Shown here piece by piece: positions 33,136-37,807 of a stretch of DNA of 55,232 bases (position 1 is its first letter; each line of letters begins with the position of its first letter). Made by a program: the position numbers and the translations under genes. The stretch covers positions 1-55,232 of the forward strand of contig CP066690.1 of NCBI GenBank assembly GCA_016432465.1, given 5' to 3'. The stretch comes from Candidatus Sungiibacteriota bacterium (GTDB lineage: Bacteria; Patescibacteriota; Minisyncoccia; Sungbacterales; HO2-52-23). Under the pieces are notes generated by a model. It made no database searches, was not told the origin of the DNA, and saw only the letters and a program-made list of their open reading frames with translations.

Positions 33136-33351
33136 ATGGGCTTTATTTTTATTTTTCAAATAGTCATATCCCTGCTTCTGGTTGCGGCGATTTTATTCCA
33201 ACAGCGAGGCGGTGGCCTCTCTCCGGTTTTTGGGGGTGAGGGCGGCGTATACCGCACCAGACGCGGTATTGAAAAAACAGTGCATCGGGCAACGGTTATT
33301 CTTTCAATTCTTTTCTTGCTGACAGCCCTCCTGAATATAATCCTTAGATGA
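33136..33351 (+). CDS. secG: Preprotein translocase subunit SecG
   Basis: ILFQQRGGGLS..FGG...RTRRGIEK between two TM helices. Confidence 0.9.
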   Translation: MGFIFIFQIVISLLLVAAILFQQRGGGLSPVFGGEGGVYRTRRGIEKTVHRATVILSILFLLTALLNIILR

Positions 33352-35114
33352 AATTAATTAAAAAATACTTACGATCTTGTATAAAAGAAGTGAGATTTCG
33401 GCGCATCCTGCGCCGCTGGAAACTTTTGAGTTTCCGTAAACTGCTTTACTTTCCACATATCCTTAATAAAAAAGAGCGGCGTTTTTTTTATTCTCTTACC
33501 CTGCTTGTAATCATCAGTGGACTGGCGATTTTTCTGCGTATCTATTTCAAGGTCAGCTACCCGGTAGCGCAGGTCGGCAAAACTTATACTGAAGGGGTGC
33601 TTAAAAACCCCAGAACCATAAACCCGGTCTATGCCACCCAAGACGCAGATCGCGACTTGGCTCGGCTCATTTTCTCAAGTATTTTAATTTACAATTCTTC
33701 CGGTCAGGTAGAACTGGACCTAGCGGAGTCCTTGGATATAAGCCCGGACGCCAAGGCATATACCCTGACTCTTCGCAAAAACGTCTTTTGGCACGATTCT
33801 GAACCTCTGACCGTAGATGATGTTCTTTTCACTATAAAAACTATACAAAACCCACTCTATAAGAGTCCACTGCGAGCAAATTGGCAGGGAGTTGATATAG
33901 AAAAACTGGATCAGTCAACTATCCGTTTCACACTCCGTACGCCGTATGCGCCTTTTATTGAAAATCTAACCTTGGGTATTATTCCTAAACATCTTTGGGA
34001 AAAAATATCACCGGAGCAGGCCCTGCTGCACGAACTTAACCTGAAACCGGTTGGCTCCGGGCCGTATAAATTTGAAAGATTCAAACAGGCCAAGGACGGA
34101 TCAATAATTTGGTACCGCATGCAACGCAATTCGCAATATTATCGGGACGGACCATACCTTAATAAAATTATATTTGTTTTTTTCAAGACCGAGGAGGAGC
34201 TTATAGCCGCTTGGCGCAAGAGAGACATAGAGGGATTTGGCCCGGCACCAGCAAATATTCTGCGTGAAGTTGGAGAAAGATCCTCCATCCGCACTATAAA
34301 AATGCCGAGGATTTTTGGCGTATTTTTTAATGAAAAAAAATCACCGCTTCTGGGCAGGGGGCCCGTTAAAAAGGCGGTGGTACTGGCCATTGACCCAACG
34401 GTCGTGGCCAGAGAATCCATCTCTGGCGAGGCAATTCCTACAAGTTCTCCCTTACCTTTTGTAAACATAAATAGTGACGCCGGTTTGGAATTTAACCCTG
34501 ATGCTGCAAGGAAATTACTTAAGGAGGACGGTTGGAAAGACGAAGACGGAGACGGTATACTGGATAAAAAAGCGCGCCAAAAGGGGAAAGACGTCCTGAC
34601 CCCCCTTCGTTTCACCCTTACCACTTCGGACTGGCCAGATCTTGTAAGGGGCGCAGATCTTATAAAGTCTATGCTGCGTGAGGTGGGTATTGACGTTGTG
34701 GTTGAGAAAAAAATCTTTACGGAGCTGGAAACTTCGGTAATACGGCCACGCAACTTTGAATTACTGCTCTTTGGACAGGTATACGGATATGAGACTGATC
34801 CCTTTACCTTCTGGCACTCTTCACAAATTAAGGATCCCGGACTTAATGTTACGCTTTATAGCAACAAGAGGGTGGACGGGCTTTTAGAAGAGGCGCGCCG
34901 TACCTCAAATCCTGATCTTCGCGAAAAGAAGTATTTAGAATTTATAGGGCTCCTGCAAAAAGACATACCCGCTGTTTTTCTTTACTCCCAACTTTATTTA
35001 TATCTGCTTCCGGACAGCCTCAAGGGCGCAGAGATAGAAAAAATTTCACTGCCATCGGATCGTTTTAACCAAATCAACAAATGGCATAAAAAAACCAAAA
35101 GGGTGTTTAAGTAA
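33348..35114 (+). CDS. Peptide ABC transporter substrate-binding protein (family 5)
   Basis: PRTINPV, WHDSEPLTVDDVLFT, PVGSGPYKF motifs; N-terminal TM. Confidence 0.88.
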   Translation: MKLIKKYLRSCIKEVRFRRILRRWKLLSFRKLLYFPHILNKKERRFFYSLTLLVIISGLAIFLRIYFKVSYPVAQVGKTYTEGVLKNPRTINPVYATQDADRDLARLIFSSILIYNSSGQVELDLAESLDISPDAKAYTLTLRKNVFWHDSEPLTVDDVLFTIKTIQNPLYKSPLRANWQGVDIEKLDQSTIRFTLRTPYAPFIENLTLGIIPKHLWEKISPEQALLHELNLKPVGSGPYKFERFKQAKDGSIIWYRMQRNSQYYRDGPYLNKIIFVFFKTEEELIAAWRKRDIEGFGPAPANILREVGERSSIRTIKMPRIFGVFFNEKKSPLLGRGPVKKAVVLAIDPTVVARESISGEAIPTSSPLPFVNINSDAGLEFNPDAARKLLKEDGWKDEDGDGILDKKARQKGKDVLTPLRFTLTTSDWPDLVRGADLIKSMLREVGIDVVVEKKIFTELETSVIRPRNFELLLFGQVYGYETDPFTFWHSSQIKDPGLNVTLYSNKRVDGLLEEARRTSNPDLREKKYLEFIGLLQKDIPAVFLYSQLYLYLLPDSLKGAEIEKISLPSDRFNQINKWHKKTKRVFK

Positions 35115-35174
35115 TACTACATGTACATAGCATCTAGTGCAGTGGAAGAAATATAAAAAGCGAGCGAAGCGAAG

Positions 35175-35213
35175 CCCCGAACCGTATCGCCGAAAGCGAT
35201 TCTGGTTCTGGGG
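35175..35213. repeat. Intergenic palindromic element
   Basis: CCCCGAACC-GTATCGC-CGAAA-GCGATTC-TGGTTC-TGGGG. Confidence 0.6.
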
Positions 35214-35232
35214 TATCACGGGGATGGTGAAT

Positions 35233-35317
35233 AAAAAAACCCCGGGGTTGGCAGTAGCTACCTGAAAGGGCTACCGTTCCCCAGGGGCCAGAGGACGGAT
35301 TCCAACCGCCTCTGACA
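35233..35317 (-). ncRNA. Putative small RNA 1 (~85 nt, two hairpins, U-tail)
   Basis: Follows the duplicated promoter; ends in a CCCTGGGG/CCCCGGGG stem plus T7. Confidence 0.5.
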
Positions 35318-35322
35318 TTATT

Positions 35323-35351
35323 CATTATATCAAACCCACAGAATTTGTCAA
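35323..35351 (-). promoter_or_regulatory. Sigma70-type promoter, copy 1
   Basis: TTGACA-N16-TATAAT with extended TGn; 29 bp identical to 35741-35769. Confidence 0.8.
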
Positions 35352-35370
35352 TAGGCAGAAAAGTGGCTTA

Positions 35371-35400
35371 TCCGCCGGAGGCGGACCCGCCTCTGGCGGG
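35371..35400. repeat. Family A palindrome, intergenic copy
   Basis: TCCGCCGGAGGCGGACCCGCCTCTGGCGGG. Confidence 0.85.
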
Positions 35401-35590
35401 AAATAGGGATAAGCTGGCACTATAAAATCCGCGTGATATTTTGTAAGCTTCAAGAAGCAACAGAGGTGTCATGGGACATGGGGCTAGAGTATGGATTTTG
35501 ACCTGATTGAAGTTTGACTTCAATCAAAAAGAAATAGAAAATCCCAGTGGGTCAGTGAATAAGAACTAGAAGTGTCATGGGGCGTAGGGG

Positions 35591-35735
35591 AAAAAAAGAG
35601 CACCTCCATTGGAAGTGCCCGACCCAGGGCCGGTAGTTCCGGCATTCACCCCCTCGGTCTTGTCCGAGGGGCGTGGGAGGTGCAGAGTGCTCGGGCTTCA
35701 ATCCCTGGACTTATACCCCGGCTCTCACCTCTACA
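35591..35735 (-). ncRNA. Putative small RNA 2 (~145 nt, multi-stem, U-tail)
   Basis: Follows the duplicated promoter; GCACCTCC/GGAGGTGC closing stem followed closely by T7. Confidence 0.5.
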
Positions 35736-35740
35736 TCATA

Positions 35741-35769
35741 CATTATATCAAACCCACAGAATTTGTCAA
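35741..35769 (-). promoter_or_regulatory. Sigma70-type promoter, copy 2
   Basis: Identical 29-mer to 35323-35351. Confidence 0.8.
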
Positions 35770-35776
35770 GCACTGC

Positions 35777-35805
35777 TTGCATCCAAAATTTAGATATGCT
35801 ATAAT
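35777..35805 (+). promoter_or_regulatory. Promoter for tRNA-Leu/rnj, back to back with promoter copy 2
   Basis: TTGCAT-N17-TATAAT with TGn. Confidence 0.65.
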
Positions 35806-35832
35806 GGAAGTAAGCTCTTGGAGAGCGCCCTT

Positions 35833-35849
35833 GGGAAGTCAGACTTCCC
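35833..35849. repeat. Family D palindrome GGGAAGTCAGACTTCCC
   Basis: Same as the units at 25581-25616; variant at 39709-39725. Confidence 0.75.
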
Positions 35850-35948
35850 TTACTAAAGGACTTTCTCCAAGGGATAAATCTCTCAATAAATAACTACTTT
35901 TTAGTTTTTACTATTTTAATTTAACCGTCTTAAAAATATTAAGGAGGC

Positions 35949-36032
35949 GGGGACGTGGTGAAATTGGCAGACACGCAGCGTTCAGGGCGCTGTGAGCGCA
36001 AGCTCATGAGAGTTCAAGTCTCTCCGTCCCCA
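35949..36032 (+). tRNA. tRNA-Leu(CAG)
   Basis: GGGGACG/CGTCCCC acceptor, CAGCG-TTCAGGG-CGCTG anticodon arm, long variable arm; CCA not encoded. Confidence 0.96.
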
Positions 36033-36064
36033 TCAGTATTATTTAATCTAAATAAAATAAAATA

Positions 36065-37807
36065 ATGACTCCATATAAAACGCTTGCCCGACGTCCGATG
36101 CCAAGGATGCCGGAGTTTAAAATAGCGCCTCAAAAATCAAGAGGCCATCTTAAATTTGTGCCGCTCGGAGGGTGCGGAGAAGTAACGCGCAGTATGTATA
36201 TCTACGAGTATGATGATGATATTGTCATAATTGATATGGGACTGCAGTTTCCCGAGGAAGATATGCCGGGTATTGACTATTTAATACCAAATGTTGAGTA
36301 TCTCAAGAACAAAAAGAGGAATATCCGCGGGGTAGTAATTACCCACGGCCATTATGACCATATCGGCGCTATCCCCCATCTTCTGGATGTTCTGGGCAAC
36401 CCGCCTATTTATACCACGGCTCTTACGCGCGGCATGATTCTAAAACGACAGGAGGATTTCCACGGATCCCCCAAGCCTAAAATTGAGGTCATAACTCCGG
36501 AGTCGCGCCTGAAACTTGGCTCTTTTGCGATTGAGTTTTTCCATGTCAACCACAACATTCCCGACTGCGTGGGTGTGGTTTTAAAAACTCCTGCCGGTAC
36601 TATGGTGCACACGGGAGACTTTAAATTTGACCATACGCCTGTTAACGAAAAGCCGGCAGATATATCCAGAATATCCCAGATAGGAAAAGACGGGGTTTTA
36701 ATGCTGGTGTCGGAAAGCACTGATGCCGAGCTTCCCGGACATCAAATTTCTGAAACCGACGTTCAAAAATCACTGGAGGAGATTTTTAAAGCAGCCCGCG
36801 GCCGCATAATTGCGGCTACTTTTGCTTCTCTTCTTACGCGTATCCAGCAGCTGATTTGGCTTTCGGAAAAATATGGACGCAAAGTGCTTATTGAGGGCTA
36901 CAGCATGAAGCAAAACGTGGCTGTGGCGCAGGAGCTTGGTTATTTAAAAGTAAAAAAAGGCACGTTTATCACCAGTAAAGAACTGGACAACTTTAAGGAC
37001 GAACGCGTAACAATTGTCTGCACCGGCGCGCAGGGCGAGGATCATGCCGTTTTAATGAGAATTGCCAACAACGAGCATAAAACCATTTCACTAAAACCAA
37101 CCGATTCGGTGCTTTTCTCCTCCTCGGTCATTCCCGGAAATGAGGCAACAGTACAAAGGCTTAAAGACGTACTCTATAAAAAAGCGGCCAAAGTTTATCA
37201 CTACGCCACTATGGATATTCACGCCGGAGGACATGCCAAGCGGGAAGAACTTAAACAAATGATTGATCTCATTAAACCCAAATACTTTATACCCATTCAT
37301 GGAAACTACTTTATGTTAAAACTACATGCCGACCTTGCCGAAAACTCCGGTATACCCAGACAAAATATAATGATCGCCGAGGATGGAGACATAATAAATA
37401 TCGGCAGGGATGAGATTAAAAAACTAAAAGAGCGCGCGCCAACAGATTACGTTATGGTGGATGGTTTGGGCGTGGGCGACATTAAAGAGGTCGTATTGCG
37501 CGACCGCCAGCACTTAGCAGAAGACGGGATATTTGTTATCATAGCCATAGTAGATTCCCAAACCGGCAAAGTACGGACGAGTCCCGATATAATCTCCCGC
37601 GGATTTATTTACCTAAAAGAGTCGCAGGAGCTCCTGAAAGAAGTACGCCACAAAGTTAGAAAAATTGTTGAAGATACAACCACGGGCGGAACTCATCCCG
37701 TCAACTGGACGCATGTTAAAGATAATTTGCGCGAGAAAATTGGACAATTTTTGTTTTCCAAAACAGAACGGCGTCCCATGGTGCTTCCGGTTGTAATTGA
37801 GGTATAA
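36065..37807 (+). CDS. rnj: Ribonuclease J
   Basis: PLGGCGEV, THGHYDHIGA, HTGDFK, HAGGHA, RRPMVLPVVIEV. Confidence 0.97.
   Translation: MTPYKTLARRPMPRMPEFKIAPQKSRGHLKFVPLGGCGEVTRSMYIYEYDDDIVIIDMGLQFPEEDMPGIDYLIPNVEYLKNKKRNIRGVVITHGHYDHIGAIPHLLDVLGNPPIYTTALTRGMILKRQEDFHGSPKPKIEVITPESRLKLGSFAIEFFHVNHNIPDCVGVVLKTPAGTMVHTGDFKFDHTPVNEKPADISRISQIGKDGVLMLVSESTDAELPGHQISETDVQKSLEEIFKAARGRIIAATFASLLTRIQQLIWLSEKYGRKVLIEGYSMKQNVAVAQELGYLKVKKGTFITSKELDNFKDERVTIVCTGAQGEDHAVLMRIANNEHKTISLKPTDSVLFSSSVIPGNEATVQRLKDVLYKKAAKVYHYATMDIHAGGHAKREELKQMIDLIKPKYFIPIHGNYFMLKLHADLAENSGIPRQNIMIAEDGDIINIGRDEIKKLKERAPTDYVMVDGLGVGDIKEVVLRDRQHLAEDGIFVIIAIVDSQTGKVRTSPDIISRGFIYLKESQELLKEVRHKVRKIVEDTTTGGTHPVNWTHVKDNLREKIGQFLFSKTERRPMVLPVVIEV

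Follow-up and report, generated by a model that had tools for sequence, protein, structure and literature searches.

The window analyzed here, a 55,232-nucleotide stretch of a Candidatus Sungiibacteriota chromosome, carries the 29-mer TTGACAAATTCTGTGGGTTTGATATAATG at 35323-35351 (P1) and again at 35741-35769 (P2), both on the minus strand and 418 bp apart, and the question raised by this locus is why two small RNA genes should have letter-identical promoters. The initial annotation proposed either two co-regulated sRNAs or a single promoter module that serves RNA cargos of different kinds. The two 29-mers are probably copies of a portable promoter module heading self-contained RNA cassettes that bear a decayed secA-tail scar, and the identity of the promoters would then follow because both genes are portable promoter-RNA-terminator cassettes. 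The notion of two co-regulated sRNAs would be compatible with such a reused module.

The identical promoter pair itself is confirmed, with no match to the 29-mer in 100 shuffles, and the genome-wide hunt for further copies that had been recommended finds no third copy at up to three mismatches in the whole 923,469-bp genome, window included. Both predicted promoters match the sigma-70 hexamers at 12/12 positions, the spacer being 16 nt long and the -10 element extended by TG (TTGACA-16-TGaTATAAT) and followed by a G; the -35 boxes of P2 and of the divergent promoter of tRNA-Leu are 7 bp apart. The flanks had been described as unrelated, which holds except for the first 14 nt of the transcripts, where the likeness continues to give 43 nt at 93% identity (35769-35728 versus 35351-35309). 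This region includes a leader, gWATRATGT, that is common to the P1 and P2 units and missing from the RNA1 and RNA2 homologues described below. Because P1 and P2 are exactly identical and share a leader that the homologues lack, the comparison suggests that the module was copied locally, by duplication or by gene conversion, in an event that would be recent and would end at the AGAGG common to both RNAs.

The transcript predicted from P1, termed RNA1, is a non-coding RNA of 86 nt (about 35318-35233, minus strand) with a calculated fold of -44.7 kcal/mol (z = -4.5). It is composed of a T-arm-like hairpin 1 and a Y-shaped terminator domain, which as read from the sequence and the fold is closed by an 8-bp outer stem and followed by seven T residues at 35239-35233. 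Four homologues are found, one in a genome (G335) and three on metagenome contigs, and two of these (L073 and L070) lie in convergent orientation just behind a true secA gene. A promoter is present at the matching position in the homologues, but it is not of the P1/P2 family. The RNA1 alignment contains compensatory changes in 10 of the 27 pairs, including covariation within the terminator domain, and the 23 nt of hairpin 1 are invariant in five lineages.

Hairpin 1 has the arrangement GGCGG-UUGGAAU-CCGUC, in which G53, U54, U55, R57, A58 and C61 of the tRNA T-arm numbering are kept, with U54, U55, R57 and A58 present in all five members. In a difference from the tRNA T-arm, position 56 is G or A, whereas tRNA has C, and RNA1 is without a D arm, an anticodon arm or a CCA end and gives no match to the Rfam tRNA model. 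Hairpin 1 superposes on the variable-loop-to-acceptor part of tRNA-Trp genes on two contigs (L072 and L074) at 21/21 specified positions and 27/33 nt overall, a match that may be due to chance because the database is large. Of the two contigs, L072 is a T4-like viral contig and L074 is 1.5 kb in length; the single match to the RNA1 pattern in IMG/VR is a tRNA-Trp on a T4-like contig.

RNA2, the predicted product of P2, is a non-coding RNA of about 146 nt (35591-35736, minus strand) with a fold of -70.4 kcal/mol (z = -4.3), so that the expectation of two folded segments ending in a stem plus T7, with no substantial ORF, is borne out for both units. In the fold, a long stem (P1 of the RNA) capped by an apical loop of 18 nt precedes two hairpins and a CCCUGG linker, and the unit closes with an intrinsic terminator formed by a 10-bp stem and the T7 tract at 35597-35591. 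A single homologue (127.9 bits) occurs in the genome G108, where a promoter of the P1/P2 family is located at the matching position. Although RNase J is only 49% identical between the two genomes, the RNA2 body is about 93% identical compared with about 69% for the flanks, with 101/112 aligned columns identical in the body versus 79/114 in the flanks (Fisher p = 1e-4), and it is kept far better than its own promoter, terminator and relic. The substitutions fit the consensus fold and include one compensatory pair, the covariation being minimal because there are only two sequences. Recent transfer, rather than selection, could account for the high identity. RNA2 is not found in 61 genomes of the window's own order, in 11 of the order of G108 or in a 400-genome sample of the phylum, and look-ups made via spurious ORFs have nothing on record for independent contigs across RNA2. 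The alignments show RNA1 and RNA2 to be two different predicted cargo RNAs, rare and patchy in distribution, with sequence and fold kept in distant genomes. They form separate families, each with homologues elsewhere, as the idea of different cargos behind one promoter would have it.

No Rfam family matches either RNA. With Rfam 15, only tRNAs reach the gathering threshold (one tRNA in the whole window, the regional tRNA-Leu at 48.9 bits), the best non-tRNA matches at E up to 10 across 34900-36200 have 12-20 bits and E >= 0.2, and no family is found at E up to 1 in three paralogous loci. Since hardly any relative has either RNA, a housekeeping RNA of the SRP, 6S or RNase P type was discarded. 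For the two families, covariance models (R1 and R3) were built, and R3 recovers only the query in 400 phylum genomes, a weak negative because 11 candidates per genome were scored. Neither the cassette nor RNA2 turns up in the phage, plasmid and IMG/VR collections. No stretch of the whole genome is perfectly complementary to RNA1 or RNA2 over 15 nt or more, and the duplex of the two RNAs, at -65.3 kcal/mol, is no better than shuffles and lies inside their range. Coding potential was rejected on both strands, as was a type I toxin-antitoxin arrangement, there being no conserved ORF and no convincing antisense promoter.

The two units are located in a lineage-specific insertion of about 620 bp between an SBP gene and the promoter of tRNA-Leu(CAG) (35949-36032, plus strand), surrounded by chromosomal housekeeping genes. 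The order SBP/tRNA-Leu/RNase J is conserved in relatives, with the tRNA serving as the syntenic anchor, and the SBP-tRNA-Leu spacer is 834 bp compared with 118-130 bp in two relatives (G016 and G012). In other relatives it extends over about 200-1350 bp of unrelated content, and one (L067) has a single relic at the corresponding site. One edge of the insertion is marked by the native tRNA-Leu promoter (35777-35805, plus strand; TTGCAT-17-TATAAT), which is homologous to the promoter found in relatives about 35 bp past the SBP stop. At the SBP-side end, 35140-35232 on the plus strand is a decayed paralogue of the secA tail, hairpin and relic at genome position 858374-858494; the window segment 35140-35242 aligns to the secA tail and its downstream region with a score of 70, compared with a mean of 22.6 and a maximum of 47 for shuffles. 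A BLAST search with a 556-bp region in 60 relatives gives repeat and promoter pieces only, and the RNA bodies are not found. A contig of the same strain (L064) was considered as a presence/absence polymorphism and rejected as a chimera, since it passes from one organism to another within the conserved tRNA-Leu.

The genome's own secA ends in GKKYKRCHG* and lies 820 kb from the window locus. Directly behind secA is a cassette array of which the insertion is a paralogue, with the framework pieces in the same order and each unit trailed by an antisense secA tail (GKKYKRCHG) in decayed form. In the insertion, all on the minus strand, such a copy (cccctacgCCCCATGACACTTCTAGTTCTT...) is placed directly past the RNA2 terminator at 35547-35590, followed by Element A at 35486-35540, a hairpin (GATTGAAGTCAAACTTCAATC) with a tail, and by a second secA-tail relic (CCCCATGTCCCATGACACCTCTGTTGCTTCTT) at 35452-35485, recognized by sequence comparison. 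Element A is also present at 858.8 kb, where two relics behind secA flank it, and at 665.6 kb. Comparison likewise defines a conserved frame upstream of P1 at 35352-35451, composed of ...ATATCACGCGGATTTTATAGTGCC... and a stem-loop with T-run, CCCTATTT...ATAAGCCACTTTTCT, into which a GC-rich palindrome with at least 15 genome copies has been inserted (35358-35405). The cassette boundary is formed by the antisense secA tail CCCATGACAC(C/T)TTTTATATTTCTT. Direct repeats of the secA 3' end bounding the inserts are present as a graded series, in which the antisense copies range in identity from 26/26 down to 16/26. The window's relics are decayed, each alone being at the background level of 16/26 (the 99.9th percentile of the background), and were assigned to the secA-tail family by position, common CCCTACGCCCCATGACAC context and the graded series. 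The signal for another secA-tail fragment, in sense orientation within the upstream frame, is marginal (p of about 0.004 in two of three tests) and was therefore not used.

Reuse of the promoter module, one of the two proposals made at the outset, is upheld by its distribution beyond the window. Including the spacer, the promoter family is found at 25 other Patescibacteria loci, where it heads unrelated small genes and RNAs; by eye, the cargos of the loci that fit the promoter pattern include about a dozen small ORFs and eight ORF-less terminated RNAs. Within the genome there are four members (35.3k, 35.7k, 859.7k and 501.3k) compared with none for a reversed control. The conserved frame consists of an upstream stem-loop, the promoter TTGACAAATTCTGT..TTTG.TATAAT, a cargo with its own terminator hairpin, and then a common T-run and secA-tail relic. 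The stem-loop and promoter part is common to at least seven units in at least six genomes with differing cargo, and across genomes the frame is about 80-83% identical over about 120 nt. Each cassette tabulated has its own promoter. The cargo between the common upstream frame and the downstream relic is 102-317 nt in length, and the variable part starts near +1 and stops where the terminator hairpin ends, the size of a transcript, whether a small protein gene or an RNA.

The preferred reading is that each cassette is built from a promoter, a structured non-coding RNA, an intrinsic terminator and a decayed remnant, in antisense, of the codons that end secA. Such cassettes would spread horizontally and within genomes via recombination at the common frame, which may be homologous or site-specific at the secA-tail sequence. 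RNA1 and RNA2 would be transcribed constitutively and equally, and would act in trans as structured, probably protein-binding, RNAs.

A more far-reaching reading, which we regard as tentative and rather doubtful, is a previously undescribed cassette platform of Patescibacteria that uses the ultra-conserved secA zinc-finger tail as an attachment or homology site and trades accessory RNAs, among them RNA2 and a tRNA-mimicking RNA1. Its units would be complete transcription units (stem-loop, promoter, transcript-sized cargo and terminator), with some cargos being dedicated, structured regulatory RNAs; RNA1, as a T-arm/acceptor-like mimic, and RNA2 might serve, for example, as decoys or guides in conflict against phages or hosts. 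Because the variable part equals the transcript, the mover could be an RNA intermediate or a trans-acting recombinase. No integrase is found in or near the window locus. The genome has one tyrosine recombinase, a single PF00589 match at 891.7 kb that is remote from every array, and one reverse transcriptase at 115-116 kb, which adjoins no array.

Parts of this architecture are known from other systems. In the PeSL cassettes of T4-type phages, strong sigma-70-like promoter and terminator stem-loop modules frame small, non-essential, swappable genes, and recombination between modules shuffles the cargo in hyperplastic regions (Arbiol et al. 2010, PMC2839356). A repeated strong promoter and stem-loop module flanking small swappable cargo is also seen here. 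PeSLs differ in being phage-resident and in involving mini-circles, whereas the present units lie on a Patescibacteria chromosome and are unrelated in sequence; the frame additionally bears a host secA-tail relic, and the cargo in the window is structured non-coding RNA. Putative mobile promoters are near-identical promoter regions ahead of unrelated genes, within a genome and across families and classes (Nijveen, Matus-Garcia and van Passel 2012, PMC3575422); the definition used there required 80% identity or more across 50 nt or longer ahead of protein genes. Within this genome the matching stretch is shorter (29 nt without a mismatch, 43 nt at 93%), takes in the leader as well as the -10 box, and heads RNAs, whereas the cross-genome frame would come within that definition.

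Integron arrays include some cassettes that are ORF-less and have promoter activity. They resemble the present arrays of small single-cargo units with a recurring boundary, some of them ORF-less, patchy and swappable. The boundary here is a secA-tail relic and not an attC (59-be) palindrome or an attC-type inverted repeat, and there is no IntI, attI or Pc beside the arrays, where a promoter and a terminator come with every cassette. Genomic islets integrate at the 3' end of conserved genes (tRNA, tmRNA or protein), with tandem accretion. Similarly, repeated and increasingly decayed copies of the last codons separate the inserts directly behind secA; the units differ in being only 250-450 bp, in having no integrase and in forming arrays that are also far from secA.

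Among the explanations that compete with portable cassettes, evolutionary debris is unlikely. The insertion would be a decaying copy of the array downstream of secA, in which promoters may fire while the RNAs are functionless leftovers of leaders, terminators and gene fragments, consistent with a region patched together from genome-wide repeats and decayed relics, with the patchy distribution of the cassettes, and with no target or partner having been found for RNA1 or RNA2. Against decay, the RNA2 body is kept much better than its own promoter, terminator and relic in two distant genomes, the RNA1 fold is maintained via 10 compensatory pairs with the 23-nt hairpin invariant in five lineages, and all seven known copies of the RNA1 and RNA2 units (7/7) are complete from promoter to terminator and ORF-free.

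It is distinctly improbable that RNA1 and RNA2 are ordinary, vertically inherited sRNA genes that were mostly lost, with promoters alike through polymerase preference and with no cassettes or mobility. TTGACA, TRTG and TATAAT are indeed generic consensus elements, and two Firmicutes loci also fit the 28-nt pattern. However, the pattern TTGACAAATTCTGTNNNTTTGNTATAAT includes the non-consensus spacer AATTCTGT and 25 of its 27 loci are in Patescibacteria; the upstream and downstream frames are common while the cargo differs. The near-identity of RNA2 at 49% RNase J identity, its absence from congeners of G108 and the empty locus in close relatives likewise argue against vertical descent.

A cis-acting leader is very unlikely. 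Mutually exclusive RNA2 pairings, in which GCACCUCC would bind either the 5' AGAGGUG or the terminator GGAGGUGC and so control read-through, are present in the sequence, but nothing coding lies downstream of the terminators in the window or in G108, for which reason the riboswitch/attenuator class was rejected; both units end in a terminator and a relic, and no Rfam riboswitch matches even at E = 10.

Cassettes for small proteins can be given hardly any credence at this locus. RNA1 had been suggested to encode a leaderless 15-aa peptide (MSEAVGIRPLAPGER), and RNA2 would be a start-stop or other mini-ORF; an ATG is located 6-8 nt past each -10 box, and one P1/P2-family promoter (L056) does lie ahead of a leaderless signal-peptide gene. 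The peptide frame is not conserved, since in the four RNA1 homologues the start is GTGCAGAGG, with a consequent frame shift and a stop in the window's frame. In RNA2 the ATG runs straight into TAG, and 1-nt indels relative to G108 disrupt all reading frames. The AUG region is also buried in a stable stem, the G of the RNA1 AUG being already paired within hairpin 1.

Duplication of the 29-mer by an assembly artefact, a concern raised by the initial annotation and favored by short-read contigs that break near the repeat, is so unlikely that it can be set aside. The genome consists of one contig of closed size, and Logan assemblies of three independent runs (SRR12113422, SRR12113430 and SRR12113431) are 100% identical through RNA1 and P1 and break at 35352-35393, where the repeats begin; each copy is at the correct promoter position, with homologous units carrying a promoter there too.

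The host is an ultra-small groundwater bacterium that is present in the DNA runs SRR12113419-431, and to our knowledge Patescibacteria combine tiny genomes with almost no described regulatory RNAs or mobile elements. The locus provides two concrete, uncatalogued structured RNA families for this group. We infer that RNA1 and RNA2 travel as ready-to-express cassettes between hosts that differ like separate families or orders of one class. The frame and the cargo are clearly separable, which makes the mechanism of spread approachable by experiment. Should RNA1 and RNA2 turn out to have a function, they would count among the earliest known examples, in the Patescibacteria phylum, of accessory sRNAs exchanged by horizontal transfer.

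The 29-mer TTGACAAATTCTGTGGGTTTGATATAATG is present twice on the minus strand, as the initial annotation recorded, at 35323-35351 (P1, heading the 86-nt RNA1, ~35318-35233) and 35741-35769 (P2, heading the ~146-nt RNA2, ~35736-35591), and consists of a perfect -35 element separated by 16 nt from an extended -10 element (TGaTATAAT). Shuffled windows contain no match to it, and the genome-wide search proposed earlier finds no third copy at ≤3 mismatches in the genome, a single contig of 923,469 bp (46% GC) placed in Candidatus Sungbacteria (Patescibacteria) from the source names of its nearest RNase J relatives. The description of the flanks as unrelated requires correction in that identity extends past the 29-mer, covering 43 nt at 93% and reaching 14 nt into the transcripts. 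Downstream of each promoter lies the annotated GC-rich folded segment with no ORF and ending in a stem plus T7, with a predicted fold of -44.7 kcal/mol for RNA1 (z = -4.5 against shuffles) and -70.4 kcal/mol for RNA2 (z = -4.3); neither has an Rfam family even at E = 10. Transcription of both units is predicted from sequence. Independent assemblies match the sequence from the solute-binding protein gene through RNA1 to P1 exactly, with RNA2 outside their span.

The gap that contains both units, 834 bp long, separates a family-5 solute-binding protein (SBP) gene from tRNA-Leu(CAG), both on the plus strand (33348-35114 and 35949-36032), and RNase J follows the tRNA. This gene order is conserved across the family but the gap length is not, being 118 bp in G016, 130 bp in G012, ~200 bp in both G015 and L065 (whose RNase J, at 84% identity, is the closest to that of the window), 360-400 bp of unrelated content in G013 and G045, ~560 bp in L067 with a single relic (a decayed antisense copy of the last secA codons) at the matching site, and 1350 bp in G003 with an antisense ORF inside. 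Because the tRNA promoter (TTGCAT-17-TATAAT) is placed ~35 bp past the SBP stop codon in the short-gap relatives, and its window homologue (35777-35805) is separated from the -35 box of P2 by just 7 bp, some 620 bp carrying both units were inserted between the SBP stop and the tRNA promoter. The insert is pieced together from repeats that also occur at other places in the genome, among them element A (35486-35540, three genome copies) and a GC-rich palindrome, CCCGCCAGAGGCGGGTCCGCCTCCGGCGG (35358-35405, at least 15 other genome sites), inserted exactly in the loop of an AT-rich stem-loop of the cassette frame (CCCTATTT^ATAAGCC). The palindrome seems to behave as a REP-type element, since many of the order's genomes carry it, on both strands.

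Other features are apparent at this site. The SBP/tRNA-Leu spacer of G045 (L030, 1133-1493) consists of two tandem ~115-bp units with a GC hairpin, another type of filler at the hotspot. The tRNA-Leu leader (~137 nt from promoter to tRNA) contains a hairpin, GGGAAGTCTGACTTCCC (35830-35854), of which the genome has at least 11 near-identical copies, and a similar hairpin is present in the G003 leader. From tRNA-Leu on, the Logan contig L064 (SRR12113419) matches the window at 99.9% identity, and its upstream positions 1-281 hold the C terminus of a different SBP gene with a spacer of only ~25 bp; the likeliest explanation is a chimera with its junction within the conserved tRNA.

The promoter belongs to a family of four in the genome at ≤7 mismatches (reversed control, zero): P1, P2, a copy at 859.7 kb that drives the gene of a small CxxC protein, and another at 501.3 kb heading an ORF-free folded RNA. 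Among 185,579 species genomes, 27 loci match the pattern TTGACAAATTCTGTNNNTTTGNTATAAT, 25 of them in Patescibacteria (Sung-, Lipton-, Zambryski-, Buchanan-, Azambacteria and others), and viral contigs contain no match. Inspected by eye, the cargos at these loci are ~12 small ORFs, Shine-Dalgarno-led or leaderless, and eight ORF-free terminated RNAs, all mutually unrelated. Units from six genomes anchored on the promoter have a common upstream frame, ...ATATCACGCGGATTTTATAAT.CCAATTTG.CCTTATTTTAAGCC-T-run-..CTA, and a common downstream frame composed of a T-run, CC(T)NACGCC, CCATGACAC and CTTTTATATTTCTTCC, whereas the 102-317 nt between them, from ~+1 to the end of the terminator hairpin, are completely different among units. 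The motif CCCCATGACAC(Y)T-rich, another of the repeats that make up the inserted block, follows terminator T-runs at ~20 places in the genome.

The fourth family promoter directs a ~220-nt ORF-free folded RNA with terminator and secA relic (501072-501309, minus strand). A locus in Azambacteria (L051, 4478-4650) under the same promoter has a core in common with it, TTCTTTSGAGGGGCAA...CCCCTCCTG, a hairpin and CAGAA, so the two RNAs would constitute a third cargo RNA family. In three other genomes (L037, L042, L045) a conserved structured leader of ~150 nt, ..ATAGTTTT.A.C.TTATCAGCCTGCCTAG...CCCTCCTAA.., extends from a promoter of the family to a Shine-Dalgarno-led membrane or secreted protein gene and is a candidate cis-regulatory RNA.

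The origin of the downstream frame is illustrated by metagenome contig L073, where an RNA1 homologue is convergent with secA, the terminator is common to both, and the true secA end, ...GSGKKYKKCHGK followed by the stop codon, lies past it. The secA gene of the genome (855752-858406) ends in GSGKKYKRCHG. When all CCRTGRYAY sites in the genome are scored against the antisense secA tail, the values are graded from 26/26 (the gene itself) through 23, 23, 22, 21, 20 and 20 to the two window copies, each at 16/26; as 16 is also the background 99.9th percentile, the window copies are assigned as relics by context and the graded series rather than on individual score. Window 35140-35242 (plus strand) aligns with the secA tail, hairpin and first relic at 858374-858494 with a score of 70 (shuffle maximum 47), and the window block and the array behind secA (858.4-859.7 kb) have their framework pieces in identical order (tail relic, hairpin, relic, unit, relic, element A, relic, unit). 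The window block is thus paralogous to the cassette array downstream of secA and differs from it in cargo. Distant from secA, at 729529-729600 (minus strand), the secA tail plus downstream hairpin is present once more in nearly complete form (23/26 identity to the antisense tail, flanks ~90% identical), probably as a second translocated array end like that of the window. A piece of the upstream frame, AAATATCACGCGGATTTTATA (35406-35451, also in L057 and G108), weakly resembles the sense secA tail with a 9-nt deletion; the resemblance is marginal, its score being reached by 2/500 and 1/500 shuffles at two loci (none in G108), and would make this piece and the antisense relic ~26 nt upstream an inverted pair.

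A covariance model built from the single RNA2 sequence (R1) has no match in the 61 other genomes of the order and one match, of 127.9 bits, in G108, a genome of the same class but another family and order (RNase J 49% identical to that of the window, compared with 75-83% within the family). Neither the 11 other genomes in the order of G108, three of them congeners, nor a sample of 400 genomes across the phylum contain RNA2. In G108 the same frame surrounds the unit, in the order relic, upstream frame, TTGACAAATTCTGTCAGTTTGCTATACT, RNA, terminator and relic. Identity between the two RNA2 bodies covers 101 of 112 aligned columns, against 79 of 114 for promoter leader, terminator and relic combined (Fisher p = 1e-4). 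Stem substitutions preserve pairing, the terminator stem is rebuilt in G108 with one compensatory pair and wobble changes, and two 1-nt indels disrupt all reading frames on both strands. Since RNA2 is rare, patchy and near-identical across a deep split, with the body better kept than its flanks, it fits a horizontally moving, non-coding, constrained cargo. In the structure derived from these two sequences two elements may be important, both conserved in G108 without covariation: a putative pseudoknot between CCAGGG of the apical loop and the CCCUGG that precedes the terminator, and an alternative pairing of GCACCUCC with the 3' strand of the terminator.

RNA1 has a homologue in G335 (model R2), from a different family (RNase J 52% identical), where the unit, with promoter, terminator and CCATGACA relic, sits in an array behind secA; a metagenome scan with the hairpin-1 pattern adds three more (L071, L073, L075). 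In the five-sequence alignment compensatory changes occur in 10 of 27 predicted pairs, all within the Y-shaped terminator domain, and the nine pairs and most of the loop of hairpin 1 (GGCGG-UUGGAAU-CCGUC plus flanks) are invariant. The leaderless 15-aa peptide suggested for RNA1 is not conserved, because the homologues start GTGCAGAGG, one base shorter, so that the frame differs and that of the window meets a stop codon in them. Hairpin 1 resembles a tRNA T arm stacked on an acceptor-like stem, and the scan also matched two true tRNA-Trp genes at 27/33 nt, on a T4-like viral contig (L072; IMG/VR, L081) and a short contig (L074); by estimate, chance would produce a few matches of such quality among all the tRNA genes in the database. 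The likeness is treated as structural resemblance, not descent. The 0.92-Mb genome itself has 71 tRNA/tmRNA genes predicted by ARAGORN, with a dense cluster, CCA-encoding genes included, at 439.9-442.4 kb containing a second tRNA-Trp whose length (87 nt) is unusual. For either RNA no long antisense target stands out, nor does RNA1-RNA2 pairing.

The two window units have a common promoter and leader, gWATRATGT, as far as AGAGG, whereas the promoters and leaders of the RNA1 and RNA2 homologues are related but different (...TATACTttaacaGTGCAGAGG and ...TATACTataaaCAGTAGGGG); we therefore infer, as the best explanation for the identity of P1 and P2, that the module recently underwent duplication or gene conversion locally. 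AGAGG is present independently in both RNAs and could have been the end point of homology in this event. For the spread of whole cassettes, the secA-tail sequence might be a site for a trans-acting recombinase; the only tyrosine recombinase of the genome (891.7 kb) is not near any array. Alternatively, the conserved frame could be a handle for homologous recombination, as in the PeSL cassettes of T4-type phages (PMC2839356). The only reverse transcriptase (115191-116366, minus strand, 349-392 aa), also not near any array, best matches group II intron RT/maturase models, at scores under their curated cutoff, as well as generic models of defence or DGR-type RTs, and no link to the cassettes was found.

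The initial reading of one promoter module reused for different RNA cargos is supported, and the promoter duplication is an instance of this known type of event. The searchable literature holds nothing on secA-tail cassettes, RNA1 or RNA2, the nearest concepts being PeSLs (PMC2839356), mobile promoters (PMC3575422) and ORF-less integron cassettes (PMC6557892), and the surrounding cassette system appears undescribed. RNA1 and RNA2 represent two uncatalogued families of structured RNA that appear to move between distant Patescibacteria.
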